A stretch of 58,718 nucleotides of DNA from a virus (taxonomy: Duplodnaviria; Caudoviricetes), in IMG/VR virus record IMGVR_UViG_3300025305_000019, positions 1-58,718 of that record; one strand, 5' to 3'. Numbering within the stretch: the first letter of the stretch is position 1; the number at the start of each line of letters is the position of its first letter. A model generated the notes under the pieces. It was not told the DNA's origin. It saw only the letters and a list, made by a program, of their open reading frames with translations, and made no database searches. The translations under genes and the position numbers were made by a program. Of this stretch, positions 135-58,718 are shown piece by piece.

Positions 135-1529
135 GACCGGGGCAGTGTCACCCACCGGGGCAACGGTAGCGGCCTCTGGCGACCCCTCCACGGGGCTCAC
201 AGGGGCTTCTACCACAGGTTGTGCTGGGGTTACCTCTGGTGGTAACTGGGTTCCGGCGTTCTCAAGCGCCACGGACTGCTCGGGCGACGGGGCAATGGGG
301 TCCACGACCGTCAGGCCACGGGCCTTTACCTTGGAGGTAACATCGACCTGCTCGTCATACGTCAGCGCACTCATACTGCGCTGGTAGTTCTTACGGGCCT
401 GAAGTTCCTGCGCGGTGGTGAAGCTACCTTCGGAGGTAACGTCCGTTGCATCCACGACAGGTGCAGCCCCTGCCACACCCGGTACAGCCGGATCGGTAAC
501 AGGCGGCGCGACCGGCTGGGTAGCGATCACGTTGTCCGATGGTGTCATGGCTTCATCGACAGCGGTGCGGGGGCGGCTCGGGTTACCGGCCACACCAGAG
601 ATACCGCCACCCAGCAGGCCACCGAGGACACCGCCCTCTAGTGCACCCGTGGCGATCTGGCCGACATCGTAGTCTTCCTGCAAGCCGCCAGCGATCATGG
701 CGTCCTGATTGGCTGCCACTTCAGCGCCCGACTGGATTGCTTCCGTGGAGCCGCCTTCAGCGATGCCAGAGCCGACGCGCTTGGCGACACCCTTCTCACC
801 TTCGGCAAGCAAGCTGGACCCGGCCTTGGTCGTGAGGCCACGCGCTGCCATACCGCCGACACCGATGGAGTTGGTCACGGCACCGAGGACGCCGAGCATC
901 AGGGGCTTGTAGCCCATCATCATCGCGTTGTACTGCTGGCGTGCCTCACGCTCGGGAACGCCACTGGCACGAAGCTCGCGGTAGGCCGGGACTTCCTCCT
1001 GAAGTTCAGCGTCAGGGAGGGCGTCCGTCGCCTTCATCACATCGTCAATCATGCCAGCCGACGACATGACCGCACCAGTGCCAGCCGCCGTAGCGGTCGC
1101 CATGAGGGCAGCGGGGAAGATGGTAGCCGGGATGGCAGCCGCGAGGCCGACCGTCGCCGCCACGTCAGGAACCATCTGTGAACCCTTGAGGGCAAGGGTC
1201 GTCAGGCTCCAGAAGTCAGGATCGGTAACCGTGGACTGGATGCGACGGGCAGCGTCGGGAGAAAGCGACTTCTCGATGCCGCCCTCAAGATCGCCAAACA
1301 GGCCCTGCGTCAGTTCACCGAAATACTGGACAGCCTTGGAGGTGTTCGCCTCCGGGTCTTCGGTGTTCTCGCCAAGCGCACGGACCATGGCTCCAAGGTC
1401 GGAGCCCATACCAGCGAGACGGCCACCGACTGCCTTGCCGAAATCGGATATACCAGTACCATCCTTGTACGGGTCAGCTTCGCCGTAAATCTTGTTGATC
1501 TGGTCGTCGGTCAGGGCGTTGTCGGCCAT
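9..1529 (-). CDS. 5' part of giant polyvalent virion/ejection protein (continues at 58592 down to 53097; ~2338 aa total)
   Basis: ATG at 1529 preceded by GAGGA; open frame MADNALTDDQINK... runs to the contig start; joined length 7017 nt is in frame with ORF 53097..58694. Confidence 0.85.
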
Positions 1530-1548
1530 GGTAATTCCTCAAAAGAAA

Positions 1549-1582
1549 ACGGCTAGGTTACCTCGGGGGGTAATCTAGCCGT
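1549..1582 (-). terminator. Hairpin with T-tract built around a GTTACC-N6-GGTAAT palindrome, immediately upstream of the giant gene RBS
   Basis: ACGGCTAGGTTACC...GGTAATCTAGCCGT stem followed on the minus strand by TTTTCTTTT. Confidence 0.55.
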
Positions 1583-1609: not shown

Positions 1610-4234
1610 TTATTGCTGTAGAGACATCAACTGGCGGTCAATATCCTTGATGGCCTGCTTTGCCGCGTAGCTGTTGGCCGACCCCCCATTCAGGATGGCT
1701 TCTCGCCGCTGCATCAGCCGTTCGATCTCCACATCGTTGGTCCCATCAGGGATGCCACGCTCTGCCGGGGTGCTTTCGCGAGGGACGTAGCCTTCCGGCG
1801 CTGGCTCCACCATGCTGCCGATTGTCTTACCGGCTTCGGATGCTGCCCCGGTCTTTCCACCGGGATCGCCCGACAGGGCCTTCTGGAGAGCGTCACGCAT
1901 ACTGCCCAGCGTCTCCATGCGACCCCGCCACTTCTCGTCGCTGGCTTTCTGGTCGGCTTCCGCCTGCTCGATAGCGGCCTGACCCATCCGAACCATCTGC
2001 TGCAACTGGCTGGCCGAGCCCTTCGACATGACGAGCGAACGGTCGTCGTTCATCCGCACTTCCACGAGATCGGGGTTGCCACGGATCGGGTTCACCTCAA
2101 ACTCAAGCCCACTGTTCGGGTCAAGCAACTTGGCGACTGTCCGTGCTGCGGCATCACCAGTCATCCGGTTCACGACCTTGCCGTCAACCTGCATGGTAGC
2201 AATGTCCGTCGCGATGTCACCCACGGCAGCGATCTGTTCGGAGGTCATATCACCCCCCTCCAGTTCACTCGTGTATGCCATCGCACCCTCACCAGCCTTG
2301 GCGGTATCGGTGACCGTAGCCCCCTCATACTGCGTGGCCGGTGCACCCTGTGCATCAAGGATGGCCTGATTGAACGTACCGGGGCCGAAGCCCATGGCCG
2401 TCTCTGCCATCTTCTGCGGGTTCATCACCTCGCGGTGCACCGTCTTGCCAGACTGGGCGTCCTTCATCTCGATCTGGTAGCCGCCCTCAACCTTCGTGAC
2501 GCTGATGTCACGACCGTTGGGGATGTTGTCGAACGCATGTTCCGCCAGCTTCGCCGCCTGATCGGTATCACCACTCTCTGCGGCGACCTGTGCAAGCGAC
2601 ATAAACTTGGATGCCTCCAAGCGGTAGAACTGCGTCATCTGGGCAGCGGCAGCCTGTGCCTTCTCCACGTCTCCCTGATCCATGTGGTACTGGTACACGA
2701 GGCCGATGGCCTTCATGTTACGCTCACCCGGCTGCATCTTGCGCTCCGGGTCGATGCGATCCATGACCTGTTTCATCATCTGCTTCGGTGCAGCGCCATA
2801 CCCCTTGAGGTAATTCTGGCGCTGTGCCTCAAGCTCCGGGTCTGCGATGGCACTACCCTGCGCTGCTCCCATGTCAGCAATGGCACGCTTCAGGCCCTCA
2901 CGGGTTGCGATGCGCCCACGCTCATATGGTGACAGGGCCGAGAGGTCTTCGTTACCTTCCGAGGTAACCGGCTCGTCCGTGTCGTCCGCGATAGCCCCCT
3001 GATACTGTGGGCGGCTAGTCGGTGCCGGGACATCCTCCGGTATAGCGCCCGTCGCACCGCCTGCATCAGCCATCTCAAGGCTCTCGATGTCTTCTTCCTG
3101 CTCTGCCATGTCCTCATAATCTTCATCGGGTTCCTCGATCATCCCGCCGAGGGCCGCTTGGACCGCCTTCTTGCGCGGCTTGCGTGCACCGACCAACTCG
3201 ATATGCCACGGCTCATGCTTCATCGGGAAGTGCAGGCCGTACTTCTGCGCGTTCTCGTGCAGGTACTGCTGGACTTCCTTGGGTGCACTCCGCATACCCA
3301 TGTCGGCTGCCGTGCCGTGGTTGTGCTGCGAGCCACCCGGAGGGGCAACCCACTTGCGAGCCGCCGCCACGCTGCCATACTTCTTAACGGCGTCACGGAA
3401 CAATCGCTCCTGCGTTTCCGGGGAGCGATAGGCCGAGTTGATTTTGATCTGCCGCTTGATCTCTGGCGGCGCGTCATCCACAAGGGCAGCGAGGGCGTTG
3501 CCAAACGAGGCATTGAGCCCACCGAAACTGTCTGCCCGTGCCTTCGCCCCACCCGATGCAAACGCATTCAGGAATTCAGGCTGGTAGGAACGGCGACCGC
3601 CACCCCCACCCATAGCGTTCACGGCACCGATGGCCCCGCCACCCTGATCGTCAGGCGAGTAGTTCATCGGCTGCACCGTGGCCTCACCATCGCTGCCACC
3701 GTATGCCTCGGGGATTGCCCCGCTGGTACCGCCCAACGTCCGGTCGAGGAAACCCCCGATGGAGTTGGTCGTCTGGGCGTCGGGCGACTGTGCCTGCTCA
3801 AGACGCAAGGCATCCCGTGCTAGCCCAAGACGCTCTGCCTCACGGGCGTCGGACTGGATCGCACGCTCGTCCTGCCGACCGTACCGCTCCTGCTGATCTT
3901 CGTATACCTGATCCCGCCACTTGTCGCTGGAGATGTCACGGTTACGGTTATAGGTGGTCGTATCGTCATACCGCGCATCGCCAATGGCGTACCGCTGCTG
4001 CTGGTCAGCACGGCCAGTTTCCCAGCGATAGTCGCTCTTCGCGGCCTGCTGATCGCGGAAGGCGTTGTCTTCGGCACGCCACTCGCCCGTGCGCTCGAAG
4101 CCCTCCTGTGCACGACGCTCGGAGGCTTCCTTACGGGCTTCCTCCCTGTCTTCCTTTTCCTTCTCGCGTGGCCCCTTAATCAGCTTGTAGCCGGTGGTGA
4201 AGCCATTCACGAAGTCTTCAAGTTCACTCGCCAT
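1610..4234 (-). CDS. Internal virion/ejection protein with M15 (VanY-like D-Ala-D-Ala peptidase) domain
   Basis: 874 aa; SAYRS..Q..LF...APPGGSQHNHGTAAD...EPWHIE peptidase M15 motifs; position among ejection genes. Confidence 0.8.
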   Translation of the reverse strand: MASELEDFVNGFTTGYKLIKGPREKEKEDREEARKEASERRAQEGFERTGEWRAEDNAFRDQQAAKSDYRWETGRADQQQRYAIGDARYDDTTTYNRNRDISSDKWRDQVYEDQQERYGRQDERAIQSDAREAERLGLARDALRLEQAQSPDAQTTNSIGGFLDRTLGGTSGAIPEAYGGSDGEATVQPMNYSPDDQGGGAIGAVNAMGGGGGRRSYQPEFLNAFASGGAKARADSFGGLNASFGNALAALVDDAPPEIKRQIKINSAYRSPETQERLFRDAVKKYGSVAAARKWVAPPGGSQHNHGTAADMGMRSAPKEVQQYLHENAQKYGLHFPMKHEPWHIELVGARKPRKKAVQAALGGMIEEPDEDYEDMAEQEEDIESLEMADAGGATGAIPEDVPAPTSRPQYQGAIADDTDEPVTSEGNEDLSALSPYERGRIATREGLKRAIADMGAAQGSAIADPELEAQRQNYLKGYGAAPKQMMKQVMDRIDPERKMQPGERNMKAIGLVYQYHMDQGDVEKAQAAAAQMTQFYRLEASKFMSLAQVAAESGDTDQAAKLAEHAFDNIPNGRDISVTKVEGGYQIEMKDAQSGKTVHREVMNPQKMAETAMGFGPGTFNQAILDAQGAPATQYEGATVTDTAKAGEGAMAYTSELEGGDMTSEQIAAVGDIATDIATMQVDGKVVNRMTGDAAARTVAKLLDPNSGLEFEVNPIRGNPDLVEVRMNDDRSLVMSKGSASQLQQMVRMGQAAIEQAEADQKASDEKWRGRMETLGSMRDALQKALSGDPGGKTGAASEAGKTIGSMVEPAPEGYVPRESTPAERGIPDGTNDVEIERLMQRREAILNGGSANSYAAKQAIKDIDRQLMSLQQ

Positions 4235-4268
4235 GTGTCTTATCCTTGGGTGTTACCTCGTGAGGTAA

Positions 4269-5354
4269 TTACTTCGACGTGTAGACCGGGGGCTCTTGGA
4301 GCGGCGGTCCCTCGGTCGGGATGGCTCCGGTCTGTTGCTTGGCTTCATCACGTTCGCGCTGGGCCTTGTCAATCAGTCCGTACAGATGCTTCTCACCAAA
4401 CCATGATACAGCATCGTCAGGGATGACAAACTCGCCAGCGTTGAGCCGTGCCGGGACATCATCCACGATGGCTCCACCCGATGGGCTCATCTCGTCAGGG
4501 ATGGCCCCACCTTCCTGCGGATCAGGGACGGCACCGCCTTCCGCGAGGCCGAACGCCTTACCTGCGAGGCCACCCACGAGGCCAAGGGCACTGCCCCAAC
4601 CCGACGAGGTGTTGTTTGCCTTCACGCGGTCAAGCTGGTTCTGGTAGCCCATGTTGAGGGTGTTGCCCCAACCTGCGAGGGCCTGATTTCCCTGCCCGTT
4701 CCACTGGACGCCGGTACCCATGGTGTTGGCACCTGTCTGGGTCGCGGCATTCGTGGCACCGGCTGCGCCCTGCCCAGCGCCCTGCGATACGCCGTAACTC
4801 TGGGCGATCTGGCCGGGGTAGCCCTTACCGATGTTGATGGCTTCCGAACGCAGCGCACGCGCCGTGTCTTCCACCCGGTTGCTCGCGACAGTGCCAGCCG
4901 ACGCCTGCGCCGCTGCCTGCGCTGTCCGCATACCCATGTCGAGCGCGGAGTAGCGGGTCGAGCTTGGGTCGATGCCATACGCCTCAAGGTCTTTCTGGGC
5001 GTTCTCCCGCTGGGCGTTGAACTGGGTCGCTACGCCAGCCTGCGCCATGCCCATCTGCTGGTCGCGGCGCTCCTGCGTGTCGTAAGTCTTGGCATCGTTG
5101 ATAAGGTCGTCTTCGAGCGGCTGGTACTTTTCCTCGTACCGCGCACGATCACGAACGGCAGCTTCGGACGTTTCATCCATGTCGGCTAGGAAGCTGTCAA
5201 CCACACGGTTCGTGATCGCGCTATCCTTGGCCCACTGCTCTTTGGCCCATGCAAGCTGTTCGCGGCCAAGCTGCAACGAGGCTTCTGCGCTCGCCTGCTG
5301 TGCGGCGGCAACCGGGCCATAATCCGGGGGAGGGGGTGCTTTGGACTTGCCCAC
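4269..5354 (-). CDS. Internal virion/DNA-ejection protein
   Basis: 361 aa Gly/Ala/Gln-rich; N-terminal KAPPPPDY typical of podovirus ejection proteins; DDVPARLNAGEFVIP motif; synteny after GNAT. Confidence 0.7.
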   Translation of the reverse strand: MGKSKAPPPPDYGPVAAAQQASAEASLQLGREQLAWAKEQWAKDSAITNRVVDSFLADMDETSEAAVRDRARYEEKYQPLEDDLINDAKTYDTQERRDQQMGMAQAGVATQFNAQRENAQKDLEAYGIDPSSTRYSALDMGMRTAQAAAQASAGTVASNRVEDTARALRSEAINIGKGYPGQIAQSYGVSQGAGQGAAGATNAATQTGANTMGTGVQWNGQGNQALAGWGNTLNMGYQNQLDRVKANNTSSGWGSALGLVGGLAGKAFGLAEGGAVPDPQEGGAIPDEMSPSGGAIVDDVPARLNAGEFVIPDDAVSWFGEKHLYGLIDKAQRERDEAKQQTGAIPTEGPPLQEPPVYTSK

Positions 5355-5359
5355 TGGTG

Positions 5360-5806
5360 TTACCTCGCGTGGTAATTCGGTTTGATGTCTCGGGGCTTCA
5401 GCTTCAAAGCCCTACAGTCTTCCTTGACCATATTCATCAGTATCATATCGTCATCAGGAAAGACAGAGGGTATCCGCACTAGCTCTTTGAACCCGAGGGA
5501 GAGGTTGAACTTGATCGCGTCGGCGTTCTTGGCAGGTACCTGCCCGAACACCTGATTGCAGCCAAGCTGGATAAACGGGTAGTCAAACGTCATCCACAAG
5601 AGATCACGGTTGACCCAGAATTTTCGGAAGCTGCCGACATGGATAGCGATGGAGCCACCCTTGCCGGTAAAGTTCTCGAACAGGCTGCCCCCGTATAGCT
5701 CGCCATTCTCGGTGCGGGAGATGACGGTGTGCAGTTCCTTGCTGTAGATGGAACCGTACTGGGCTGCGATCCGCCTGCCGTGTTCGTGGTTGTTGATGTG
5801 GATCAT
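5360..5806 (-). CDS. GNAT-fold acetyltransferase-like virion assembly protein
   Basis: FDYPFIQLGC...VPAKNADAIKFNLSLGF GNAT signature; conserved position between tail tube B and ejection genes. Confidence 0.75.
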   Translation of the reverse strand: MIHINNHEHGRRIAAQYGSIYSKELHTVISRTENGELYGGSLFENFTGKGGSIAIHVGSFRKFWVNRDLLWMTFDYPFIQLGCNQVFGQVPAKNADAIKFNLSLGFKELVRIPSVFPDDDMILMNMVKEDCRALKLKPRDIKPNYHAR

Positions 5807-6003: not shown

Positions 6004-7792
6004 TCTTTAGTTCCTTCACCGATGTAGCCATCTGGAAAGACTTGAACCTGACGACCCCCTCAATCTCGATCTGCCAGAAGTCAGCTTTATACCCAGACGG
6101 CAGGCGGAGCAACTGGCCCGGTGTGCGAAGCTCGCGGGTTGCGACGTGCTTGCCATCTGCGAAGATGCGGACGATGGCAATCTGATGCTCTGGGTCGTAG
6201 GTCTGGACGAGATCGTGGTTCGGCGTACCTAGCAGTTCCGGGTTAGGGTAATCCTTCTCGTAGAAGTACGCTTTGCACGCTGCGAAGTTGACGGGCTCCG
6301 GTGTCTGGAAAATCTTCGACAGCCAGCGGTAAGGCTGCTTCAGATGCCCCACGTTCTGGTCGAGCCACTGGACTTTACCATCGAAGGTAACCAGCATCTC
6401 ACCCGACAGGTTGTCATTCTCCACTGACGTTATGAGCGTGTTCGCCGTCAGGAGGGAGATACCAGCGTTGGCATTCTTCGGGTTGACCATGAACCCGCTA
6501 TTACCTTGCAAGGTAACGGACGCCTGCTGGAATGCGTCCTGCTGGAATGCGTTCTGCTGGATCGAGATAGGCGTACCACCCGAAAACGCGAAGTAGGCCG
6601 TACCGAACTTGCCTGCCCTGATCTGCTTCACGGTCAGAAGCTTCAGCCATTCCTCACGGCTGATGACCTGCTCGGTGACATTCTGGGCGATACCCGGATT
6701 GACGAGGATCAGCCCGTTCGGAGACGCATAGTAGACGCCATCCGCCGAACTGACGATGGAGCCACGAGAGATGCACGGCTCAAACGTGGCGACACGAGAG
6801 GTGGAGATCGACGCCGGGTTGACACCCGAGGCCGTCATGGGTGTGCCTTCCGTCAGCACCACGAGCGTCTGGTTCGTGACCCCCAGCCCGACGATGTTAT
6901 AGTCGAGGCTCAAGGTATAGGCGGCAGGCCATGCGTGCGGACGGTAGGCTTCGGAGAACCAAAGCTCATTGCCACGGAACCCGGCGAGGATACCGTTAGG
7001 CATGGCTGCCAGACCCTGCATGTCCGAGGGTGGCCCACTCCAAGCCGTGCTGCGGAGCGGGTTGTTACTCGCAAGGTTGGTATCGAGAACCGTGTCACTG
7101 AAGTTCTGCGATGCCGTCTGTGCCGGGATATTCTTGACGAGGTAGTAATCCACACCGCCATCAGCAGCGACGACCGTGCGGTATACGTTGACTGATACGA
7201 TGTTCCGATTGACGCCGAGATCGTTGGGGTTAATCACTCCCGGCTGGGTAACCGTATAGGTGGCGTCCACCTTACCATTGATGGTAACGGCAGGGGAGAC
7301 TGGGCCTTCCTCACCATACGCCGTTACATAGGTCGAGACGTATGCACGCGACACGAGGGTGCTGGATGCGCCGCCTGTGGCAGATACCGTAATAGCCGGG
7401 GGGTTGGGCAGGCCGAGCAGGAACGCCGGTTGGCCTGCAATAATCCGGTCACGGGTATTGTATCGGGGGGATACGGACTTCGACGCGAAGTAGTATCGCT
7501 TATACATATCGTTCGCCACCGGGGCGCGGAGGAAATCCGTGTTGGGGTCATCAAACTCCAGCCAGTAGCTGTTCGCGAGGTATAGCGGGTCTTCCTCATT
7601 GATGGGGATGCGGAAGGCCACACCCGCCGTCTGACGGACCATGTTGTGGATCGAGGTGTATTTGGGCAGGCCCTCAAGGGCACCAGAATACAGAAGGACG
7701 TTGACCGCTTCCGCCGCATTGTTCTCGGAGAGCAGGTGGTCGTCAAGGGCTGGCATCATACCGGCAAAGGTGGGGATATTCAGCGCGACCAT
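5996..7792 (-). CDS. Tail tubular protein B / stabilisation (nozzle) protein
   Basis: 598 aa beta-rich; GILAGFRGNELWFSEAYRPHAWP and YVTAYGEEG motifs typical of podovirus nozzle proteins. Confidence 0.75.
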   Translation of the reverse strand: MVALNIPTFAGMMPALDDHLLSENNAAEAVNVLLYSGALEGLPKYTSIHNMVRQTAGVAFRIPINEEDPLYLANSYWLEFDDPNTDFLRAPVANDMYKRYYFASKSVSPRYNTRDRIIAGQPAFLLGLPNPPAITVSATGGASSTLVSRAYVSTYVTAYGEEGPVSPAVTINGKVDATYTVTQPGVINPNDLGVNRNIVSVNVYRTVVAADGGVDYYLVKNIPAQTASQNFSDTVLDTNLASNNPLRSTAWSGPPSDMQGLAAMPNGILAGFRGNELWFSEAYRPHAWPAAYTLSLDYNIVGLGVTNQTLVVLTEGTPMTASGVNPASISTSRVATFEPCISRGSIVSSADGVYYASPNGLILVNPGIAQNVTEQVISREEWLKLLTVKQIRAGKFGTAYFAFSGGTPISIQQNAFQQDAFQQASVTLQGNSGFMVNPKNANAGISLLTANTLITSVENDNLSGEMLVTFDGKVQWLDQNVGHLKQPYRWLSKIFQTPEPVNFAACKAYFYEKDYPNPELLGTPNHDLVQTYDPEHQIAIVRIFADGKHVATRELRTPGQLLRLPSGYKADFWQIEIEGVVRFKSFQMATSVKELKSV

Positions 7793-7832
7793 GTAAGTTA
7801 TCCCGTGCTAGTTACCTTCGGAGGTAACAGAG

Positions 7833-8511: not shown

Positions 8512-9633
8512 TCAAACGCTGTTTTTCTTAGCGTCATACGCCCCCTTGAAGGACATGATAACACTGGAGGCCGCACCCAGCAACGTGCTGAAGGCGAACC
8601 CAAGCGTAACACTGTCCACGTCTGCCGGGATGAGCCCGTAGATGTCCATGATGAACAGCAGGGCACCTGCCGGTACGCCTACACCGAGAGAGCCGTATGC
8701 CGCCCCCTTGGCTGCGCCCTTGGCCTTCTCGATGGGTCCACCCACCTCGTCAGGGGAAGGTGGCACCACTACATCCGGCAGGGGTGTCCATGTCGGCGTG
8801 GGCATCGGAGCCGGGGCCGGGGCAGGCGTTACCACCGAAGGTAACGTGACTTCCTCGGTCCACGGCGGCAGCCGATCCTTGGCCGACGACGAGTTGTAGA
8901 AGTCAAGCGCACGCTGCGCCCACTCGATACGGGCCGGGTAGTTCTTGATACCAGCACGCTCGTAAGTGACCTCGAAGGCTTCCACCTTCTCGATCAGGGT
9001 ATTCTTGCGCTGGATGGCGGGGATGGCACGGCGCTCGTCGCCCTTCAGTTCCACGAACAGCCATTTGTAGGCTGCCACGTCCGAAGACTTATCGAGCCCG
9101 TTGCGAGCGCAATACGCCTCGAAGGCAACACGCCGCGAGCCGGTCCACTGGAACCACGAATAGCCCCCACGGGAGCCCGGTACAGTCGGCTTGGCTTCAT
9201 TGATCGGGCGAAGGCCGTCGCTCTCATAGCCCCCGTTGCCGACGATGGCAGCCGCGTCGAGGACGCCGATGCCGAAGTCTGCCATCAGGGTCGCCATAAC
9301 CCAAGGGGCTTTTTCCTTGAAGGACGCAATACCTGCGTTGGACATTGTAGGGTTCCTTGTTGGGTTTTCGGTGTTACTTCCCGAGGTAACCTTTTTCCGT
9401 TTCCAGTTCCAGAAAAGCGCCCCGAAAGCCGAGACGCCGACGAACATTAGCACTCCCATACCAGTGCCCCCGATTGCCGATACGCAATCTCCAAGGGCCT
9501 GATCGGCGGCAATCTTATCAATGAGATTGCCGCCTTCCGCATATGCGATGTCGTGCTGTGCACAGCACTGGCTCCACACTGCGGTACCTATTCCTTCAAA
9601 CCAACCCGTGCAGTAGTCGATTGTTTCTTCCAT
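8512..9633 (-). CDS. Endolysin (Phage_lysozyme2-like) with N-terminal PLA2-like domain and C-terminal hydrophobic helices; probable internal start at 9345
   Basis: AAAIVGNGGYES...FQWTGSRR...FEVTYERAG lysozyme motifs; N-terminal DYCT..CCAQHDIAY..AD..L..C motif; AAGGA RBS before MSNAG. Confidence 0.7.
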   Translation of the reverse strand: MEETIDYCTGWFEGIGTAVWSQCCAQHDIAYAEGGNLIDKIAADQALGDCVSAIGGTGMGVLMFVGVSAFGALFWNWKRKKVTSGSNTENPTRNPTMSNAGIASFKEKAPWVMATLMADFGIGVLDAAAIVGNGGYESDGLRPINEAKPTVPGSRGGYSWFQWTGSRRVAFEAYCARNGLDKSSDVAAYKWLFVELKGDERRAIPAIQRKNTLIEKVEAFEVTYERAGIKNYPARIEWAQRALDFYNSSSAKDRLPPWTEEVTLPSVVTPAPAPAPMPTPTWTPLPDVVVPPSPDEVGGPIEKAKGAAKGAAYGSLGVGVPAGALLFIMDIYGLIPADVDSVTLGFAFSTLLGAASSVIMSFKGAYDAKKNSV

Positions 9634-10262
9634 CAGAGCTTTGCTGCGAAGATGAACAGGTTGTCGATGGCTTCATCATCCATGCCTTGGGTCTGGCCGA
9701 TGATGCTAGTCAGCGGGTTGTCGCGACGGAACTCGGTCGCCCCAGACAGGAGCATGGTGGCCGAGAACTTATCACTTGCAGGCATTTTGTCAATCACAGC
9801 CTGCAACGGTTCGGGTATCTCGCCGCTCTTGACGGCAGCGAGGGCGTCCGCTTCGCTGATGATGTTGTATTCACTGGAGGCCAGAGCTTGGAAGAACTGG
9901 CGATCCGAGATGGAAGCCGGGACTGCTACCTCGTCAGGTAACGGCGGGAGTAACGTAGCAGAGCCTTCGTCCCACCGCATACCTTTAGACACCTGTGAGG
10001 TGTCCGCGTTGATACCAAGGACATGCTTGCCATCAGGGACGATACGGGTGGGGTCCACCTCTACGTGTGTCACTACACCTTTTTCGTCAGTGGCTGCCCA
10101 GACGCCATAGATAGAACTAACAAACGACCCGTTTGGCTTCAATTCTACCATTTGACGTACAAGATCGTACCAATCATCCCCATCTTCGTTCTCGAAGAAT
10201 ATGATGCCGGGTTCAACCGGATTATCTACCCGGTTGAAAAACCCAAAATTAACAATTTCCAT
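9633..10262 (-). CDS. Tail fibre assembly chaperone-like protein
   Basis: FFENEDGDDWY and C-terminal ISDRQFFQAL...F.RD.PL...IDNLFIFAAKL; downstream of a fibre gene. Confidence 0.65.
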   Translation of the reverse strand: MEIVNFGFFNRVDNPVEPGIIFFENEDGDDWYDLVRQMVELKPNGSFVSSIYGVWAATDEKGVVTHVEVDPTRIVPDGKHVLGINADTSQVSKGMRWDEGSATLLPPLPDEVAVPASISDRQFFQALASSEYNIISEADALAAVKSGEIPEPLQAVIDKMPASDKFSATMLLSGATEFRRDNPLTSIIGQTQGMDDEAIDNLFIFAAKL

Positions 10263-45409: not shown

Positions 45410-45411
45410 CC

Positions 45412-51561: not shown

Positions 51562-51580
51562 GGTTACCCCATGAGGTAAC

Positions 51581-51635: not shown

Positions 51636-52139
51636 TTAGAAGTTCCAACCATCTACAATGAAGAATGCGACGGCGATACCTAACAGAACTGCGATCATTG
51701 CACGAGGCCAGCCGGGTATATAGTTCAATGGTCGGGGACCGATCACAACTCGGCGCGCACTCAAATGCAGCAAGGCTGCGATCAGGGCAACACACCGGAA
51801 GAACGTAAGCGGACTGTAGAAAACATCTGGCCTAAGCTGCTGCACTGGTACGATCACATTCCAGAATGTAACATATCCGGCTTGGCAGGCGATTGCAGCA
51901 AATATGAGCATGATGCCCATCGTAAGACTATCAATGTATGACAGTTGGTCGTTCGGTCGTTTCAAAGTAACTTTGGCAGACGGCCAATAGGCGTGCAGGA
52001 CCGCTAGACTGGTGAAGAACAACGTACTCCCCACGTAGACGTAGAAAGTCGGCGGGTCTGTTACCAGTGAGGTAACGAAGAACAGCACTAGAAAAAGCAG
52101 CGTACCGCCTACCAGATGCCACTTTTTGAAGTCTATCAT
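51636..52139 (-). CDS. Multi-pass membrane protein
   Basis: About 5 hydrophobic helices; last gene of the late operon. Confidence 0.65.
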   Translation of the reverse strand: MIDFKKWHLVGGTLLFLVLFFVTSLVTDPPTFYVYVGSTLFFTSLAVLHAYWPSAKVTLKRPNDQLSYIDSLTMGIMLIFAAIACQAGYVTFWNVIVPVQQLRPDVFYSPLTFFRCVALIAALLHLSARRVVIGPRPLNYIPGWPRAMIAVLLGIAVAFFIVDGWNF

Positions 52140-52796: not shown

Positions 52797-53071
52797 TACT
52801 TCTTGTTCCAGCCACGGTTGGCAGCCTGTGAGCGGACCCGGAGGTTACCCTTGGAGGTACCGCCTCCCGAACGCTGCGGCTTGATGTGATCCACATCTTT
52901 GCCGTCGCCCTTCTTGACCCGCCCCTCTTTCTCCATCATGCGACGGGCCTTGTTGTTATTGGATCGGGCCTTCACGTTCTCTGGGCGAGCATCGTATCCG
53001 GCATTCTTGCGCTTGATCTGCCCCGGTGTACGGTGGGAACTCGGATCGCGCTTCTCTCCATTCTCTGCCAT
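52796..53071 (-). CDS. Small HNH-motif protein
   Basis: KDVDH.KP...GG....NLRV....NR. Confidence 0.7.
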   Translation of the reverse strand: MAENGEKRDPSSHRTPGQIKRKNAGYDARPENVKARSNNNKARRMMEKEGRVKKGDGKDVDHIKPQRSGGGTSKGNLRVRSQAANRGWNKK

Positions 53072-53096
53072 TTCGGTTACCTCACAAGGTAATGGT

Positions 53097-56000
53097 TTAA
53101 TAGTTGTAGGTCTGGTTTACGGTGTCGAACAGTTCCTTCTCACGTCCGCGAGGCCGGATGCCCTCGATGGTCTTGAGGCGGTCTGCCTTCATCTGCTTCT
53201 GGTATCCTCGCAAGTCGCTGATCGAAAGCTTGGCTTCGTCAGGCTGGGTCTTGTTCCAAGCCTGTATCTCCCGCCAGAGACGCCCACGGGCAGCGCCACT
53301 TGCCTCCAGCCAACTGCGCTGGAAGTCTGTACGGGAAGCATTCATCTTATCCCGGTTACGGTAGAAGTTACCGCTGCGCTCGAAACCTTCAGCCTCTCGT
53401 GCCGGGGTAAACCCTAGCGTTCTAGTGACGGCTTCGCGTGCAGAGTACGGCGACATTACTTGCTTGCCGCTTCTATCACTCTTAACGCCTTCTGTATAGG
53501 CCCTATAGGACTTGACGCTATCCGAGAACAGCTTGATCGGCACCAGTCGCTCGGCAGCCTTGAGCATGTCGCCCTCGGCCAGATTGGTAACGCCCTTGGC
53601 ATAGTCCATGGCGAGGCCAGCCGGGGCACCAGCGAGGGTATCCCACATATACGCCTTCAAGTCCTGCGCCTCGTTAGACCGGGGCTCACCGAACCCACCC
53701 ATGAGCGTGTCGATGCCCATGCGGGTGGACAGGTCGATCCCGATGCCACGGGTCACACCACGAGAAATCATCTCGCCAGCCGTCTTACCGAACATCTCGG
53801 TAGCCGCCTCGCGCTGTGCATTCTCGATGTCACCCCAATTCCAGTCCGTCAGGCCGAATGCGTTAGCACCCATCACGATGAACTTGATCGGTTCCGTGGG
53901 CAGGCCCATGGCACCAGCTATAAGGACGTGCATTCCGATGGTGTAGGACAGAGCCTTGATGGCCTGCGCCCGATCCCCCGGCTTCTCGTTACGGACGGCC
54001 CGTGCTGCCTGCTCACCCAGCAACTGGTACATGCCCTGCCCGTACTTCTTGAACTGAAGCGCCAGTCGAAGCACCGGATGGTTGAAGACGGCAGGGGCAT
54101 TCGTCGCAGAGTAGTTGAACTGCGTCTGGTTGATGATGTCCTGCGCGAACTGGGTCGCACGATCCACATCCCCCGAACGCTCCATCTCTAGCCGGAAGGC
54201 CGCGAGCCCAGATACCGAACGGTTGATCGCTTCAACCGCCTTCGGCATCTGGCGCGTGATACCTTCGAGGTAACCAAGGCCAGCGTCGAAACGACCGCCG
54301 ATGCCTTCCATACGATTGGAAAGCTTGCCCACTTCCAGTCCGCTATCCGTGTCAATGATACCCCTTTCCACCATAACATCTAGGAACATCTGCTCCACCT
54401 TCGATTTGAGGCGAGAGCGGATCAGGCTAACAGGGTCGGATGCGACATAATCGCCATTCTTCGCCTTCCGAGCGGTATCAAGGGCACCCTGCCTGATGGT
54501 GGCGAGGGAGCCGATGTCACCGTAAGCGCGGCTCATTGCCGTGAACGCACGTCCGATGCCGTAGTGCGAGGCCAGCATGGGCATGGTCGTCATCATCGGC
54601 TGGGTAGCGTTGATGACCGAGTACGAGGGCGATGCCAGCTTATCCACAAAAGACACGGCCAGAATACGCTGCACGATGGCGTTGCTCGTCTTGTTCTCCA
54701 GCACCACGTTGGGCGAAGTGAGCCGCTTCTTGATCTCGTTGTTCAACTCCTGCCGAACGCCAGCAAAGCCGTCCTGCGGGTTGTCCTTGATGATCGCGTC
54801 GAACTCGGCCACCGCGTCGTCAACCAGTGGCTTCGTCTTCAGCTTCGCCACGTAGTTCGCCATGGAGTGCGAATAGTCGGTGGTGTTGCGGAAGAAGTCC
54901 TTCGACGCACCCTGTACGTACTGACGCGGCAGGTGCCGGGTCTGGATGCGGGTGGACGAGAGGACGTGAAGCGACATCTCATTGACGGCAGCGAGCAGTT
55001 CCTTCGTCTGGTCGCCCGTGAACCCACGGTCAACAGCCTTGCGCTCCATGACCGTGGACAGGCGCTGCATCTGCGAGGACAGGACATCGCCTTGGATGCC
55101 ATTGTTCTCGAATGCACGGGGCACCGCGTCGGCTACATTCATGCCCGACTTGCGAAGCTCCAGCACGCGCTGGCGAGCCTTGCGTTCCGTGTCGAACATC
55201 TCAACGTGGCGGTTCTGGACTGCCACACGGTAGCGTGCTTCGGCGTTGAGGTCGGCAGCAGTGAGCTTGACTTGGTTACCTTCCGGGGTAACGCCGAAAT
55301 TCTCACCAGTCGTCTTGTCAACGAACACCGTGCGAACGGTCGGGCGCTGCTCGATGCTCTCTGCGTATGCCTCTGCCTCGGCGGCGGTCTTGAACTCAAA
55401 CTCGTTGTCACCCAGTGCCACACCATTGGATGGTTTCTTGATGGCATAGGTTCCCCGCACCACCCAGTTACCGTGGCGCATGAGCGGGAAGTATGGTCCG
55501 TCGATCTTCGACATGACGCCAGCCGCTGCGATGGTGTCGTAGGTATCACCGAGGAACGCCTTGTCAGCGTCGGTGACGGTACGATCCATGATGCGGGTAG
55601 CCAGCGCGTCAACCGTCCCAAGGGAGGCTGGCACGTCGAACATCTTCAGCACACCGTTCTTGATAAGCAGGTGGGCCGCTTCGTTCTGCGCGTTCTTGAA
55701 GTAGTCCAGTGCCTCGCTGTGCAAGTCCTGAAGTTCCTCGGGCAGAGCCTCATACCGGGCCGCGAGGTCCGCGTGCTGGGCACGACGCCATGCGTCACGG
55801 GCTCCCTTCTTGGTGATGTGCTTCTGCTGGTCGAGAGGCCGGTCAGCGAACACGTTGGCGGAAGTCTCGTCGTGCGACAGGGCGGCGAAGTTCTCCCACA
55901 CCGTCCTGCCGTCCTCACCACGGACCTTGCTGTACTTCTTTTCAAGCCCATGGATTTTCATCAGCATGGGCTCCACCTTGCGGATGCCCTCCAAGGCCAG

Positions 56001-58718
56001 CGTGCGACGACGCTCGACAAGGTTGGCGATCTTGCGGATGGGGTTCTGGCCCTCGGGGAAGTAGCGATCCGCCACACGAGCAATATTGTCGAACGTGCGG
56101 AAGCCCAGCAGCCATTCCTTACCGCGCACCGGCTGCATGTCGCTGCCAGACAGGCGGGTCTGCAATGCCTTCAGGGCTTCCTTACCGATCTTGTCTACCC
56201 GGCCTTCCTCCAGCATGGAGCGGAGGTTACCCTTCGAGGTAACCTTGGGCTTCATCGCCTGTTCGCTCACCCGCAGGGCTGCGTCCAGCAGGGTATGGGC
56301 ACCCTTGGGGATGCCAAGTGCACGACGCACGGTCGCTACCAGCGTGTCCCAGATGGAAAGCGGGAGCTTGATGCCACGGTCGAGGCCCAGCCGGGTCACC
56401 AGTTCCGGGGAAGCTGGCAGACGTGCGAGGATTTCCTGCACGTTCGGATCGGACATGCTGTCAGCGACGAACTCGTCAGCGTCGATGATTGCATTCTTCA
56501 CGAACTGGAATACCTCGGGGTGTTCATCCAGAGCCATAACAAGCTCGGCACGCACCGCATCCACGTCAGCGCGGAGAGCCGGGTTGTCGGCAATCGCCCG
56601 TGCCGTCGCGGCGTGGGTTACCTCGTGAAGTACCGTATGGGCCAGCGCCTCCGGGTTGTCGATCTGATCGGCTCGCACCGTCACCCACGACACACCGTTG
56701 TCCTCGTAGAACACACCACGGGGGCCACGCTCGCCACCCTCAAGGTTGCGGCCCACAAGGCGTGCCATATCGCTCTCACTGATAATGTGAACCTTCACAT
56801 CGCCAACAAGCTTGGTCAGTGCCTTGCGCCCCATCTCTGCAATGGCGCGAGGGCCAGCGGAGCGGGAGCTAATGTCCAGCGAAGCCATGATCGACTTCGC
56901 ATCCATCGTGGCTAGCGGCTGGGCCAGTTCGTAGGTGTCTGGGTCGTAGACCGTGTTCGACGGTCCATCGTCCAGTTTACGGACGAGAGCTTCCCTCGGA
57001 GTATCCGGCGTAGCTTCAAGGGCACGGGAAGCCGCAAGTTCATCGACGGCACCATGAGGCTTTTTCGTGCGAGGCGAATTCTTCCATGCGTTAAATTCCT
57101 CCAGTGTCATGGTCTGCATGTCACCGATGCGCGAGAAACCGCTACCATCGGAGAAACCGGCGTCGTATGCGGCGAAGGCTTCCGCCTCACCCTTGAACCC
57201 CATCATCACCTTGTGTTCGTCAAAGCGGCCCGTATCCGGGTCGATCTGATCCACCACGAACACATGCTGTGCGTCATGGTCGGGGCCAAGGTACACGTCA
57301 ATGGGGTCACCATCGGCACCCTTCGTACCGAGGATTTGACCGTAATCGTTCTTGAGCTTGACCGACCACTTCGGCCCGTTCGGGTCTTTGTTCGTGCGGA
57401 CGGAGCCCTTGGGGTTCTCGATGGCGATGGTGTTACCATGCAAGGTAACCCGGCCCTTCTCGTAATTACCGGCCTGCACCTGTGCCACGGACGGATTGGT
57501 ATTCGTCTCGCCACGAGCCGTCTGGACGCGAGCCTTGATGGCCTGCATCTTCTGGGTCTGTGTCTTGGGCTTACTTTCCGAGGTAACAGTAGTTTCAGAT
57601 GCAACCGAATTGGAGGGGGTCTGGGGAGGCGTCTTGACCTTCCGGCTACGGACCCGCTCGACAACTACTTGACGCGCTTCCTTGCGCCCTTCCTGCGCCG
57701 CCATGGCACGGTCAAGAGCTTCTTCAACCCGCGTGGGGATGGTTTCGGAGGTCGGAGGGACACTTCGGTCGGCCTTCCTCGGCTTTCCTGCATTCGGCTT
57801 GCCCTTCTGCTGGCGCTCTGCAAGGCGCTGAAGAACCAACTCACGAGGGCTAGGCTCGCGGGTCGCGTTCTCCGTCAGGTCAATATCATCGGGCAGCACT
57901 TCAGCGACACCAGCATCGGCGTCTTCCTGCTCGCGCTCCAGAATGTTCTGGGGATCGGCTGCGTCGGTCGCGGCCTTGTCCCGCTTGATCGTGTCCACGT
58001 CAATGTCACCGCCACGACCCATGGCAGCGTCACCCTCTGCGCGGCGCTCCGCTATGGCAGCGTCACCAGCACCGGCGCGGATGTCCAGTTCCCGTGTCAG
58101 GAAACGCTGGAAGTCGTCCTTACCCGGCTTCTGCATACGGGCAAGCCTGTTCGCCTCGGAAAGCAACACGGCTTCCGGGGTGTAGGCCATATCGCCCTTG
58201 GTCACGTTGTTGATGGCCTTCGGGATTTTCACGCCAGCGGCGGTTGCATCCGCAACCATCGCCTTGACGCGATCCAGAACAAGCCCCCGTGCCGTGGTGA
58301 CCTTCTGCGGCTTGCGGCCAAGGTAGGCATCCGCCTCGACCTCTGCCGGGGCATACTTCTCGGCCAGTGAACGTGACGTGTCGTTAAGGGCCTGACGGGC
58401 AGCGATCTCTTTCGCCGTGTAGTTCTTACCCTTGCGCTGCGTCTCGACGGCAAGAGGGGCTTCTGCGGCGGCGAGGTTGGTCGCCACACGCTCGGCCTGC
58501 TGGGCGGCGAAGTCGGGTCCGGTACGATCCTCCAGAATGCGTGCACCAGTCGCCGTGCGAGCCGGTTCGACGGGCGCGGTATCAATAGGAGCGGCTGCCA
58601 CCGCATCTACGGGGGCATTCGGGTCAACGGCGGCAGCCTCCACCGGGGCAGCGGGGGCTACATCGGGGGTCTGGGTGGTGGTTTCCTCTGCCACGGCTGG
58701 CGCTGGGGTGGCTTCAGC
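53097..58718 (-). CDS. 3' part of giant polyvalent protein: inorganic pyrophosphatase-like domain, zincin HExxH peptidase, PLxRFG-like C-terminal region
   Basis: ENPKGS.R...DYG.I.GT.GADGD.IDV..G...DEHKVMMGF (~57060-57490); HEVTH (~56612-56627); YFPLMRHG (~55470-55493). Confidence 0.85.
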   Translation of the reverse strand, partial: AEATPAPAVAEETTTQTPDVAPAAPVEAAAVDPNAPVDAVAAAPIDTAPVEPARTATGARILEDRTGPDFAAQQAERVATNLAAAEAPLAVETQRKGKNYTAKEIAARQALNDTSRSLAEKYAPAEVEADAYLGRKPQKVTTARGLVLDRVKAMVADATAAGVKIPKAINNVTKGDMAYTPEAVLLSEANRLARMQKPGKDDFQRFLTRELDIRAGAGDAAIAERRAEGDAAMGRGGDIDVDTIKRDKAATDAADPQNILEREQEDADAGVAEVLPDDIDLTENATREPSPRELVLQRLAERQQKGKPNAGKPRKADRSVPPTSETIPTRVEEALDRAMAAQEGRKEARQVVVERVRSRKVKTPPQTPSNSVASETTVTSESKPKTQTQKMQAIKARVQTARGETNTNPSVAQVQAGNYEKGRVTLHGNTIAIENPKGSVRTNKDPNGPKWSVKLKNDYGQILGTKGADGDPIDVYLGPDHDAQHVFVVDQIDPDTGRFDEHKVMMGFKGEAEAFAAYDAGFSDGSGFSRIGDMQTMTLEEFNAWKNSPRTKKPHGAVDELAASRALEATPDTPREALVRKLDDGPSNTVYDPDTYELAQPLATMDAKSIMASLDISSRSAGPRAIAEMGRKALTKLVGDVKVHIISESDMARLVGRNLEGGERGPRGVFYEDNGVSWVTVRADQIDNPEALAHTVLHEVTHAATARAIADNPALRADVDAVRAELVMALDEHPEVFQFVKNAIIDADEFVADSMSDPNVQEILARLPASPELVTRLGLDRGIKLPLSIWDTLVATVRRALGIPKGAHTLLDAALRVSEQAMKPKVTSKGNLRSMLEEGRVDKIGKEALKALQTRLSGSDMQPVRGKEWLLGFRTFDNIARVADRYFPEGQNPIRKIANLVERRRTLALEGIRKVEPMLMKIHGLEKKYSKVRGEDGRTVWENFAALSHDETSANVFADRPLDQQKHITKKGARDAWRRAQHADLAARYEALPEELQDLHSEALDYFKNAQNEAAHLLIKNGVLKMFDVPASLGTVDALATRIMDRTVTDADKAFLGDTYDTIAAAGVMSKIDGPYFPLMRHGNWVVRGTYAIKKPSNGVALGDNEFEFKTAAEAEAYAESIEQRPTVRTVFVDKTTGENFGVTPEGNQVKLTAADLNAEARYRVAVQNRHVEMFDTERKARQRVLELRKSGMNVADAVPRAFENNGIQGDVLSSQMQRLSTVMERKAVDRGFTGDQTKELLAAVNEMSLHVLSSTRIQTRHLPRQYVQGASKDFFRNTTDYSHSMANYVAKLKTKPLVDDAVAEFDAIIKDNPQDGFAGVRQELNNEIKKRLTSPNVVLENKTSNAIVQRILAVSFVDKLASPSYSVINATQPMMTTMPMLASHYGIGRAFTAMSRAYGDIGSLATIRQGALDTARKAKNGDYVASDPVSLIRSRLKSKVEQMFLDVMVERGIIDTDSGLEVGKLSNRMEGIGGRFDAGLGYLEGITRQMPKAVEAINRSVSGLAAFRLEMERSGDVDRATQFAQDIINQTQFNYSATNAPAVFNHPVLRLALQFKKYGQGMYQLLGEQAARAVRNEKPGDRAQAIKALSYTIGMHVLIAGAMGLPTEPIKFIVMGANAFGLTDWNWGDIENAQREAATEMFGKTAGEMISRGVTRGIGIDLSTRMGIDTLMGGFGEPRSNEAQDLKAYMWDTLAGAPAGLAMDYAKGVTNLAEGDMLKAAERLVPIKLFSDSVKSYRAYTEGVKSDRSGKQVMSPYSAREAVTRTLGFTPAREAEGFERSGNFYRNRDKMNASRTDFQRSWLEASGAARGRLWREIQAWNKTQPDEAKLSISDLRGYQKQMKADRLKTIEGIRPRGREKELFDTVNQTYNY

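Follow-up and report, generated by a model that had tools for sequence, protein, structure and literature searches.

Why should a tailed phage write one short palindrome along its entire chromosome, into the gaps between genes and into the genes themselves? This question is raised by the IMG/VR virus record IMGVR_UViG_3300025305_000019 (Duplodnaviria; Caudoviricetes), rated complete by CheckV, whose whole 58,718 bp form the window analysed here, and by the element GTTACC-N6-GGTAAC that recurs throughout it. The element is a real and strongly selected feature and is specific to this phage lineage. It is present in excess over chance, selected at the codon level, evenly spaced, near-absent from host DNA and conserved across the clade with turnover of its positions, and it carries no signature of an RNA stem. 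As to its function, we tentatively favor, at somewhat less than an even chance, an array that is read on duplex DNA by a symmetric protein encoded by the lineage and that would serve, at even intervals, as a self tag, a roadblock or a loading point.

The initial annotation, compiled by eye, had counted about 90 copies of which 21 were perfect. The search recovered 21 perfect N6 copies at the positions implied, the first at 229 and the last at 57432, while 86 N6 sites have at most two mismatches, a few of the two-mismatch ones possibly being chance. Divided by mismatches, the imperfect N6 sites number 49 with one, 16 with two and 29 with three. Five mononucleotide shuffles contained 0 perfect, 0-1 one-mismatch, 0-3 two-mismatch and 10-19 three-mismatch sites, and 100 dinucleotide-preserving shuffles contained no perfect copy. 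The same half-sites also occur around a five-base spacer (four perfect copies and four with one mismatch) and at no other spacing from 0 to 12; these eight N5 copies had been overlooked in the initial annotation. The exact eight-base core TACC-N5/6-GGTA is found 85 times in the window and never at N4, N7 or N8. When N6 and N5 forms are pooled, 78 sites have at most one mismatch, distributed along successive 5-kb intervals of the genome as 6, 8, 4, 6, 5, 10, 14, 4, 6, 6, 6 and 3. No Rfam family matched the window at gathering score, and only one of 21 terminator-like matches between 20 and 40 kb contains a copy of the motif (23968).

The 78 sites are spaced more evenly than expected by chance, which answers the call for spacing statistics in the initial annotation. 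The mean gap is 753 bp with a coefficient of variation (CV) of 0.615, compared to a CV of 0.98±0.105 under random placement and 0.953±0.104 under a class-keeping null, in which 39 sites were drawn at random from gene starts and 39 from coding positions; none of 5000 draws reached the observed value in either null. The largest gap measures 2.7 kb and holds three two-mismatch copies. Internal sites occur in 13 of the 18 open reading frames (ORFs) of at least 900 nt and in 13 of the 63 shorter ones. These ORFs come from our own gene calls, made with an ad hoc codon model and therefore approximate as to start codons, which gave 80 ORFs covering 92% of the window in two main divergent arms.

Half of the pooled sites (39 of 78) are internal to ORFs, and here the signal reaches the codons. 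Genes contain 37 N6 sites with at most one mismatch, six N5 sites and 11 perfect copies. Across 60 synonymous-codon shuffles in which every protein was kept, the means were 3.3 N6 sites (maximum 6), 0.42 N5 sites and 0.62 perfect copies, and codon-order shuffles gave means of 0.23, 0.08 and 0, respectively. The count of 37 against both controls means that residues and codons are both tuned. This control, called for in the initial annotation, is decisive and upholds the earlier proposal that selection keeps the sites; it keeps about one per 0.7 kb, acts at the nucleotide level and bends both residues and codon choice. The peptide footprints listed in the initial annotation were all found again (VTSEGN twice, ATSEGN, VTPEGN twice, VTLEGN, VTPQGN and LPPEVT three times), and the general pattern VTxxGN occurs 12 times where composition predicts 0.23. 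Likewise, the zinc motif HEVTH (56613-56627) does overlap a two-mismatch copy at 56617. The reading frame that would place the TAA of the site in frame is avoided, and frame 0 dominates because the one remaining frame would call for TTA and GTA, codons that are presumably rare.

Local alignments show the in-gene sites as residue-changing substitutions in variable stretches of otherwise alignable proteins. An origin by insertion, either of an 18-bp unit or of miniature elements resembling REP or MITE sequences, was rejected on the same alignments, where the substitutions fall at aligned residues. It might also be asked whether the element spreads without benefit to the phage, by gene conversion or by recombination of junction cassettes. 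In favor of such a process, three junction copies (44926, 45393 and 45767) are identical over 22 nt, two of them over 28 nt, and border small genes, one of which encodes an endonuclease VII-like protein and has no counterpart in the Rhizobium phage RHph_TM29. However, the internal sites are scattered point substitutions, and drive alone would be expected to produce neither even spacing nor clade-wide persistence with turnover, making non-adaptive spread the least probable of the explanations considered here.

The other 39 sites lie at gene junctions or in intergenic DNA, even though non-coding sequence makes up only about 8% of the genome. Mismatches in the half-site are found at the outer positions 1-3 and at position 6, while positions 4-5 are invariant in the window, and the A often seen at position 1 completes the stop codon (TGA or TAA) with which the gene upstream ends. 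The spacer prefers T-Y-S-S-R-A, itself symmetric. The right half of the site, GAGGTAAC, is the ribosome-binding consensus of the lineage, a junction of Shine-Dalgarno sequence and stop codon that the initial annotation had missed, and at start-proximal sites the spacer and right arm together read GGAGGT, GAGGT or AAGGT, that is, a Shine-Dalgarno sequence. Two perfect sites (22435 and 51563) lie between convergent genes and have no start codon to serve.

How the element behaves over time was followed in nine complete or near-complete genomes, assembled from pieces and including the window and RHph_TM29. The core TACC-N5/6-GGTA occurs 85, 43, 47, 26, 25, 14, 12, 18 and 40 times in them, compared to 0-3 times at N4, N7 and N8. 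RHph_TM29 carries 14 perfect and 23 one-mismatch N6 sites together with 3 perfect and 14 one-mismatch N5 sites. The preferred spacing is N6 in the window, RHph_TM29, G002, G003 and G007, N5 in G010 and G006, and both in G001. The initial annotation had asked whether homologous proteins keep the site through synonymous choices; in-gene sites are shared at aligned places in only 3 of 19 cases with RHph_TM29, 0 of 17 with G001 and 0 of 15 with G005, the unshared ones falling on different residues or in unalignable stretches. Nor was any upstream site seen to be kept by a core gene across the genomes, as an autoregulatory site might be. Positions thus turn over while numbers stay enriched, and it follows that the number of sites is maintained as individual sites come and go.

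Bacterial DNA offers no source for the motif. A single site with at most one mismatch occurs in the 642 kb of the Rhizobium etli plasmid p42f, compared to two for a control pattern. Two assemblies of Bradyrhizobium isolates contain 11 and 22 sites, of which 7 and 19, respectively, fall on phage-like contigs; the remaining 8.7 and 7.9 Mb hold four and three, compared to 13 and 23 for the controls. In a Xanthobacteraceae bin, 12 of 13 sites fall within a 50-kb stretch of one contig. The possibility raised earlier, that an abundant host element was simply inherited, is therefore contradicted in these genomes, which are rhizobial and may differ from the window's own host. The same counts bear on a further explanation, namely that the array is a sponge or operator set for a regulator of the alphaproteobacterial host. 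Such a reading would fit the lack of a phage reader among the proteins considered below and a core kept across phages from Rhizobium, Bradyrhizobium and Xanthobacteraceae assemblies. Yet host copies at or below the control pattern leave no visible host regulon, and the palindrome is changed in more distant relatives, so that a host sponge seems very unlikely.

Is the element then recognized as DNA or as RNA? The initial annotation had described the spacer as biased yet usually not self-complementary, and the pairing statistics agree: among 70 window sites, Watson-Crick combinations at the three spacer pairs number 35, 24 and 22, compared to 37.0, 30.1 and 20.8 expected, and covariation is absent as well from 185 sites in relatives. 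Across 189 single-mismatch sites from the nine genomes, oriented by gene, mismatches at positions 2-6 comprise 22 G·U, 19 A·C and 50 others, and those at position 1 comprise 24 G·U, 30 A·C and 44 others. None of the 16 two-mismatch sites, read from the site list, is a compensated pair, and internal sites are as perfect as junction sites and use the same bases. The absence of covariation, of a G·U excess and of compensation, together with the uniform bases of internal sites, favors a protein that recognizes the bases themselves, in the simplest case a symmetric one on duplex DNA.

In such a mechanism, a sequence-specific protein of the lineage, itself two-fold symmetric, would recognize the copies on duplex DNA, with TACC-N5/6-GGTA as the conserved core that this phage may have sharpened to GTTACC-N6-GGTAAC. 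The right arm could have been recruited from the gene-junction consensus of the lineage, Shine-Dalgarno GAGG plus TAA plus spacer; since this arm is already present there, a site at a junction would need only a new left arm, whereas sites in long genes would be made through point substitutions and codon choice. Selection would act on the number and even spacing of sites, about one per 0.75 kb, rather than on position, and for that reason the array would tag the whole chromosome as phage DNA. Most likely, some machine moving along the DNA would be halted or loaded at regular intervals by the bound dimers. Our first choice for this machine would be the host RNA polymerase, with the sites acting as operators at early promoters and as roadblocks or insulators elsewhere.

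Promoters enter this proposal through three elements, which are consensus matches only. A leftward TTGACA-17-TATATC (24963..24991, minus strand) has a two-mismatch N6 site (24935..24952) 10 nt downstream of its -10 element and 8 nt ahead of the start of ORF 24789-24926 (minus). A rightward TTGACA-17-TAGGTA (28380..28408, plus strand, found by eye) has a perfect site (28416..28433) 7 nt downstream of its -10-like element, and a one-mismatch site (26092..26109) overlaps TTGCAA-17-CATAAA (26076-26104, also by eye) upstream of ORF 26154-26918 (plus). A sigma-70 promoter scan of 20-40 kb returned 10 matches, compared to 11.6 expected. Two further near-consensus elements were seen, TTGACA-17-TATATG at 38909-38937 (minus), which opposes the direction of the surrounding genes, and TTGACA-17-TATATA at 46807-46835 (plus).

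Several observations weigh against recognition on duplex DNA as just outlined. A looser scan gave 24 promoter-like matches, of which only three have a motif site nearby, so regulation of initiation cannot be the role of most sites. A called start codon lies within 15 nt of an arm at 20 of the 86 N6 sites, roughly a quarter, and at a distance of 0-4 nt in 16 of them. In G010 the left arm is reduced to (CC)TACC and most copies directly precede ATG, and distant capsid relatives carry other palindromes of like build, such as TCACTC-NN-GAGTGA in L064, most of whose copies again precede ATG. G001 holds 22 exact cores of the N5 type and 25 of the N6 type, a mixture of spacings that would be uncommon in targets of a rigid dimer but that a hairpin loop accommodates with ease. 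Perfect sites are predicted to fold as RNA at -7 to -8.2 kcal/mol, and the concentration of mismatches in the outer stem would also suit a fraying hairpin. It is because the coexistence of N5 and N6 and the outer mismatches fit a hairpin equally well that the duplex reading is held at no better than the tentative level given above.

These points lead to the strongest rival, an element acting in mRNA. Here a stem-loop of 6-7 bp, with the Shine-Dalgarno sequence in its 3' arm, would mask the ribosome-binding site until an upstream ribosome opens it, thereby coupling translation, and would in addition form a barrier to decay at junctions and within long messages. The right arm (half-site GAGGTAA/AGGTAAC) is among the most enriched 7-mers in all nine genomes, and stop codons overlap sites at several junctions. 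Together with the 16 sites just ahead of starts, the ATG-proximal copies of G010 and L064, the loop length flexible between N5 and N6, the predicted hairpin energies (-6.8 to -8.2 kcal/mol) and a stem whose sequence differs between lineages while its architecture is kept, these features are what an mRNA element would display. On the other hand, the 39 gene-internal sites precede no start and are as perfect as the others, although a hairpin there needs no fixed sequence. Positions 7-12 do not covary, G·U does not exceed A·C on the sense strand at positions 2-6 (22 vs 19, n = 189), double changes are not compensated, and the perfect sites at the convergent junctions 22435 and 51563 have no translational start to mask. 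On balance we consider an mRNA element doubtful. As for the changed palindromes of distant capsid relatives, they are also what a co-evolving reader protein would give.

Recognition by a lineage-encoded protein calls for a reader, and none was identified among the candidates examined, which likewise counts against it. The initial annotation had named four possible binders. One of them, at 41131..41454, does contain a winged helix: ORF 41164-41454 (plus) encodes a stand-alone domain of 96 aa (AlphaFold pLDDT 94) whose fold matches the OmpR family and MarR/ArsR with probability 0.99-1.00 but with E-values of only 4e-3 to 4e-2, and PDB profile matches are to C-terminal domains of the PhoB family (E = 0.01). 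A homologue is found in seven of the nine genomes, always between the DNA polymerase and exonuclease genes, and a search for homologous proteins returned its own cluster only. It is the only recognizable conserved DNA-binding protein, and its distribution is patchy. As a general reader it was rejected, being absent from at least three complete motif-bearing relatives (G002, G003 and G004) and from the motif-bearing contigs G012:C111 and G015:C32, and being present in the motif-poor G006.

The product of ORF 26154-26918 (254 aa), the first gene of the rightward arm, was another of the four and has the opposite profile. It is conserved in all nine genomes and has 808 relatives at E ≤ 0.001, but no recognizable DNA-binding fold: none of 48 family members has a Pfam match, no PDB profile matches, Foldseek finds nothing below E = 1, and VIA-align gives only helical-hairpin matches with Z < 7. 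Rows of the ESM Atlas connect it to ParB helix-turn-helix (HTH) clusters at low TM scores of 0.30-0.36, unsupported by Foldseek, VIA-align or PDB profiles. The Pfam and PHROG scans run on the window proteins contained no ParB family. The layout speaks against a centromere of the parS/ParB type, one or a few clustered sites being expected and about 85 evenly spread sites being observed. Conservation across the clade is lacking for the last two proposed binders, 28490..29578 and 23471..23815. ORF 28490-29578 (plus) encodes 362 aa with three similar HTH-like repeats and weak HTH matches (E = 4e-4 and 6e-3), is the first gene after the promoter-like site and its perfect motif copy, and is hardly conserved in RHph_TM29 itself (27% over 114 aa). 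The remaining candidates for a reader are core proteins of multi-domain or unrecognized architecture, or a host factor.

The life style of the relatives adds a different kind of evidence. The initial annotation had recognized no integrase or repressor; in keeping with this, a six-frame search found no tyrosine integrase (PF00589) in the window, nor was one found in G001-G004, and no repressor family appeared among about 60 window ORFs scanned with PHROGs or Pfam, some small ORFs lying outside the scan. Tyrosine integrases are encoded in G005 (the same 60,568-bp contig as G011:C42), G006 and G007 and beside the Xanthobacteraceae prophage, and since four relatives carry or adjoin one, part of the clade is temperate. 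Relatives form separate contigs of about 60 kb in the two Bradyrhizobium isolates and lie inside large contigs elsewhere, including the integrated Xanthobacteraceae copy; lytic plaques were the source of the cultured members on Rhizobium. Core density is lowest in the three integrase carriers, at 2.0-3.0 per 10 kb compared to 4.0-14.5. This link is a lead, comparing three genomes with five, and two of the three are close kin. That integrase carriers have the fewest sites speaks against lysogenic silencing of the stoperator type. A separate feature of one relative, G003 (L110-L113), is an over-representation of A/T heptamer runs (83 vs 13 expected).

Density highest in integrase-less genomes would also fit a mark of self comparable to Chi sites or DNA uptake sequences, a tag by which a DNA-moving phage enzyme (nuclease-helicase, terminase or repair enzyme) spares or chooses phage DNA. 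Chi sites and uptake sequences mark a cell's own DNA: they are over-represented, recognized by a protein and present within coding sequence. Spacing even beyond the class-preserving null, near-absence from host DNA and conserved number with shifting positions all agree with such a mark, and the phage encodes a PD-(D/E)XK exonuclease, a SNF2-type helicase and VRR-NUC-like and endonuclease VII-like proteins. Chi and uptake sequences, however, are features of cellular chromosomes, each a short asymmetric sequence without a gap, and no enzyme is linked to the motif here. This explanation overlaps with symmetric recognition on duplex DNA, differing only in the process served, and as a separate account we consider it unlikely.

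Replication could make use of regular spacing too, if the sites were loading or priming points for the primase-helicase, recognized as a palindrome or as a single-strand hairpin and providing regularly spaced starts on either strand. The phage encodes a primase-helicase of 1029 aa, the palindrome is present on both strands, and a spacing of about 0.75 kb is within the range of Okazaki fragments; in other viruses, superfamily 3 helicases assemble on palindromic origins. Against this, copy number varies seven-fold (12 to 85 cores) among relatives with orthologous primases, sites do not cluster at the likely origin region (27.5-28.5 kb), and we know of no precedent for genome-wide, sequence-specific priming hairpins. 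Taken together, a priming role is quite improbable.

The closest known counterpart is found in Cluster O mycobacteriophages, where the 17-bp palindrome TGTTCGG-N3-CCGAACA occurs in 34 copies in Corndog, about one third of them in coding regions (PMC4351075). The authors predict a dimeric DNA-binding protein with a role other than initiation, and in the excerpted account the function is unexplained (PMC4351075). Both are phage-specific dyad repeats that are dispersed genome-wide, unoriented and mostly without a promoter nearby, in phages lacking an integrase (PMC4351075). With more than 30 dispersed, unoriented dyad repeats (78 sites, 39 of them in ORFs), the present array falls into the same descriptive class, which is not a homologous family, and the likeness is one of analogy, not homology. 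The sequences are unrelated, the Cluster O spacer is 3 bp compared to 5-6 here, and its hosts are Actinobacteria; the array described here is more than twice as dense, has half of its sites in genes and uses one arm as a ribosome-binding site. The excerpted Cluster O account does not describe the even spacing, the selection on codons or the turnover of positions seen here (PMC4351075). The statement in the initial annotation that the known analogues are asymmetric or host-chromosomal needs correction in this respect, as the Cluster O repeats are symmetric and phage-borne (PMC4351075).

Other dispersed repeats share single features with the element. Cluster A stoperators are asymmetric 13-bp sites, co-oriented with transcription and bound by the monomeric immunity repressor of temperate phages (PMC9283540, PMC4351075). 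They resemble the present sites in being many, dispersed and operator-like, with some at an early promoter and often at junctions, and a phage protein stops transcription there (PMC9283540, PMC4351075). Here, by contrast, the site is a palindrome with mismatches in sense orientation split between left and right arms (25 vs 28), no repressor or integrase was found in the searches described above, and integrase-bearing relatives are poorest in sites; copies beside early promoters amount to those at the three promoter-like consensus matches. The start-associated sequences of Cluster K, together with their extended form, contain a Shine-Dalgarno core, lie 3-7 bp before starts, are absent from the host and occur in 11-19 copies in the non-structural half of the genome (PMC3203893). 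Their accompanying inverted repeats depart from the consensus in ways that lend no support to RNA pairing, the consensus differs by subcluster, and the function is unexplained in the excerpts of that source (PMC3203893). Here a Shine-Dalgarno core ahead of starts is seen at the 20 of 86 start-proximal sites and in most G010 copies, and not at the other sites; start-associated sequences are asymmetric and in one orientation (PMC3203893), whereas here the palindrome itself is what repeats, on either arm of the genome, with half of its copies remote from any start. Finally, the T1-like phage TLS has 21-nt intergenic direct repeats, oriented and about 76 nt upstream of starts, of which 18 of 21 are not wholly in genes (PMC11447400). 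TLS, a user of host RNA polymerase, thus offers another unexplained phage-wide repeat at gene boundaries, but one that is an oriented direct repeat (PMC11447400).

Supplementary motif tables aside, no literature report of the present motif was found. The words "palindrom" and "motif" are absent from the main text of the RHph phage collection paper (PMC8245606), and a survey of 103 alphaproteobacterial phages mentions neither RHph nor TM29 (PMC10783043). The element therefore stands by itself in what it combines: it unites features of Cluster O repeats, stoperators and start-associated sequences and adds codon-level selection, even spacing, turnover and a clade-wide range of copy number. Two of these three known kinds of dispersed repeat are still unexplained, and the present case is unusually dense and clean. 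A seven-fold copy variation that runs inverse to integrase presence makes the function of the array directly testable, and a large clade with cultured members, the RHph_TM29 group on the harmless host Rhizobium, provides a tractable model. More broadly, the case shows how far protein sequence and codon choice can yield to a signal in the DNA itself when a viral genome is compact, which matters for annotation and for the reading of selection in phage genes.

It could be speculated, although this seems unlikely, that the element does for a virus what Chi or uptake sequences do for a cell: it would be an evenly spaced, palindromic tag of own DNA, derived from the ribosome-binding consensus and continually renewed by selection, by which a virulent phage working with host polymerases only distinguishes its own chromosome from that of the host. 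If so, the tag would serve sparing from the phage's own nucleases, packaging or selective transcription, and temperate relatives residing inside host chromosomes would let it decay.

The individual sites are given here without strand, being palindromic, and are placed relative to our own ORF calls; unless stated otherwise they are N6 copies with one mismatch. On the minus strand, ORF 1-1529 contains 229..246 (perfect), 325..341 (N5) and 423..440; ORF 1610-4234 contains 2951..2968 (perfect); ORF 5996-7792 contains 6374..6391, 6500..6517 and 7271..7288; ORF 8512-9633 contains 8828..8845 (perfect) and 9373..9390; and ORF 9633-10262 contains 9925..9942. Perfect N5 copies are internal to ORFs 12463-12783 (12485..12501), 12752-13528 (13002..13018) and 51636-52139 (52060..52076). 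Two perfect copies (16284..16301 and 16857..16874) lie in ORF 16071-17123, two further sites (18598..18615 and 19717..19734) in ORF 17770-19854, and a perfect one (23968..23985) in ORF 23808-24311. ORF 53097-58694 contains an N5 copy at 54258..54274 and perfect copies at 55275..55292, 56226..56243 and 57432..57449.

Internal sites of the plus-strand ORFs are 26400..26417 (ORF 26154-26918), 27331..27348 (27220-27450), 29416..29433 (28490-29578), 30666..30683 (30452-30733), 31779..31796 (31572-32042), 32436..32453 (32307-32936), 33452..33469 (33294-33629), 37236..37253 (36654-37991), 43441..43458 and 44247..44264 (43336-44934), 46361..46377 (N5; 46133-46783), 47895..47912 (perfect; 46860-48062), and 49337..49354 and 50595..50611 (the latter N5; 48149-51238). 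The three in-gene sites with an aligned site in RHph_TM29 are 39891..39908 in the DNA polymerase ORF, 48815..48832 in the primase-helicase ORF and 52844..52861 in the small HNH ORF.

Junction or intergenic sites of the left part of the window are 1557..1574, 4252..4269, 5359..5376, 16019..16036, 20454..20471, 21012..21029 and 23016..23033, with perfect copies at 7811..7828, 10993..11010, 14926..14943 and 17553..17570; the convergent-gene junctions hold the perfect copies 22435..22452 and 51563..51580. The 0.8-kb non-coding region between the arms carries 25167..25184 (perfect) and 25370..25387. Further to the right, gene junctions are occupied by 30221..30238, 30704..30721, 32913..32930, 33915..33932, 36077..36094 and 41454..41471, by perfect copies at 30963..30980 and 36576..36593 and by a perfect N5 copy at 34817..34833. 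Start codons follow 3 nt after 26990..27007, 30006..30023 and 34471..34488, 4 nt after 34982..34999, 1 nt after 41145..41162 and directly after 42487..42504, and 53076..53093 is 4 nt ahead of a minus-strand start. Site 25716..25733 is 3 nt ahead of the start of ORF 25737-25886 (plus) and the perfect site 29771..29788 is 2 nt ahead of that of ORF 29791-30036 (plus), while at 31337..31354 the stop codon of the upstream ORF ends in the first base of the site and the next start comes directly after it. The three identical 22-nt junction copies correspond to 44926..44943, with an ATG 1 nt after the site, 45393..45410 and 45767..45784.

With respect to the phage itself, megablast with 20 kb of the window found no near-identical phage in GenBank, and a related-locus search queried with the primase returned no loci. 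The nearest named relatives are the Rhizobium phages RHph_TM29, TM27A/B and TM3_14A, with a primase identity of 58.5-58.6% over 99%; identity to the nearest named Rhizobium phage relatives is 82% for the capsid and 67% for the portal. A capsid relative is encoded in 506 of 600 candidate IMG/VR stretches, and 80 loci were kept. The window DNA is matched by contigs from runs labelled marine metagenome, although six of the seven good matches may be the source itself. PHROG and Pfam matches on the virion side include the major head protein, portal, large terminase, internal virion proteins and a polyvalent virion protein of 1865 aa. On the DNA side they include a DNA polymerase, the SNF2-type helicase, the primase-helicase (assigned through DUF927 together with primase and primase/helicase PHROG matches), the PD-(D/E)XK exonuclease and a small HNH protein.

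The giant polyvalent virion protein is divided over two minus-strand ORFs, 53097-58694 (1865 aa) and 58658-58718 joined to 1-1529 (529 aa), which overlap by 37 nt across the record ends and both match the 2639-position phrog_37402. Its RHph_TM29 counterpart is a single annotated ORF (47459-54445, about 2328 aa), and the two-ORF form could mean that the gene is truly split, that a frameshift has occurred or that the assembly is wrong. The endonuclease VII-like proteins are encoded by two free-standing genes on the plus strand. The first, 20474-21028 (Pfam Endonuclease_7, E = 1.4e-21), sits between the putative small and large terminase genes, and the second, 44945-45409, is flanked by the identical motif-bearing junctions noted above (44926, 45393 and 45767). 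Both have a tblastn match in G005 and none in RHph_TM29 or G001, and because of the latter they have the look of inserted mobile genes.

A candidate origin or control region is the 1-kb non-coding stretch 27450-28490, which has an AT-rich core and, by eye, long nested inverted repeats (about 27800-27825 vs 27980-28005), with a single motif copy at its right edge (28416). ORF 46860-48062 (plus) encodes a conserved protein of 400 aa in which a Cys-rich motif is combined with serial AADKA repeats and an acidic tail. The adjoining gene has the PHROG label "minor head protein", while its sequence looks more like that of a Gam-type end-binding protein, and the two, together with the exonuclease, probably form a recombination module. 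Finally, the RHph_TM29 gene at 42227-45310 (MN988463.1), annotated in GenBank as "putative integrase protein", is the orthologue of the primase-helicase of the window, with DUF927 and primase PHROG matches, and the 14-bp "attL/attR" features of RHph_TM29 fall inside ordinary genes; judged by these similarities, the integrase annotation looks mistaken.

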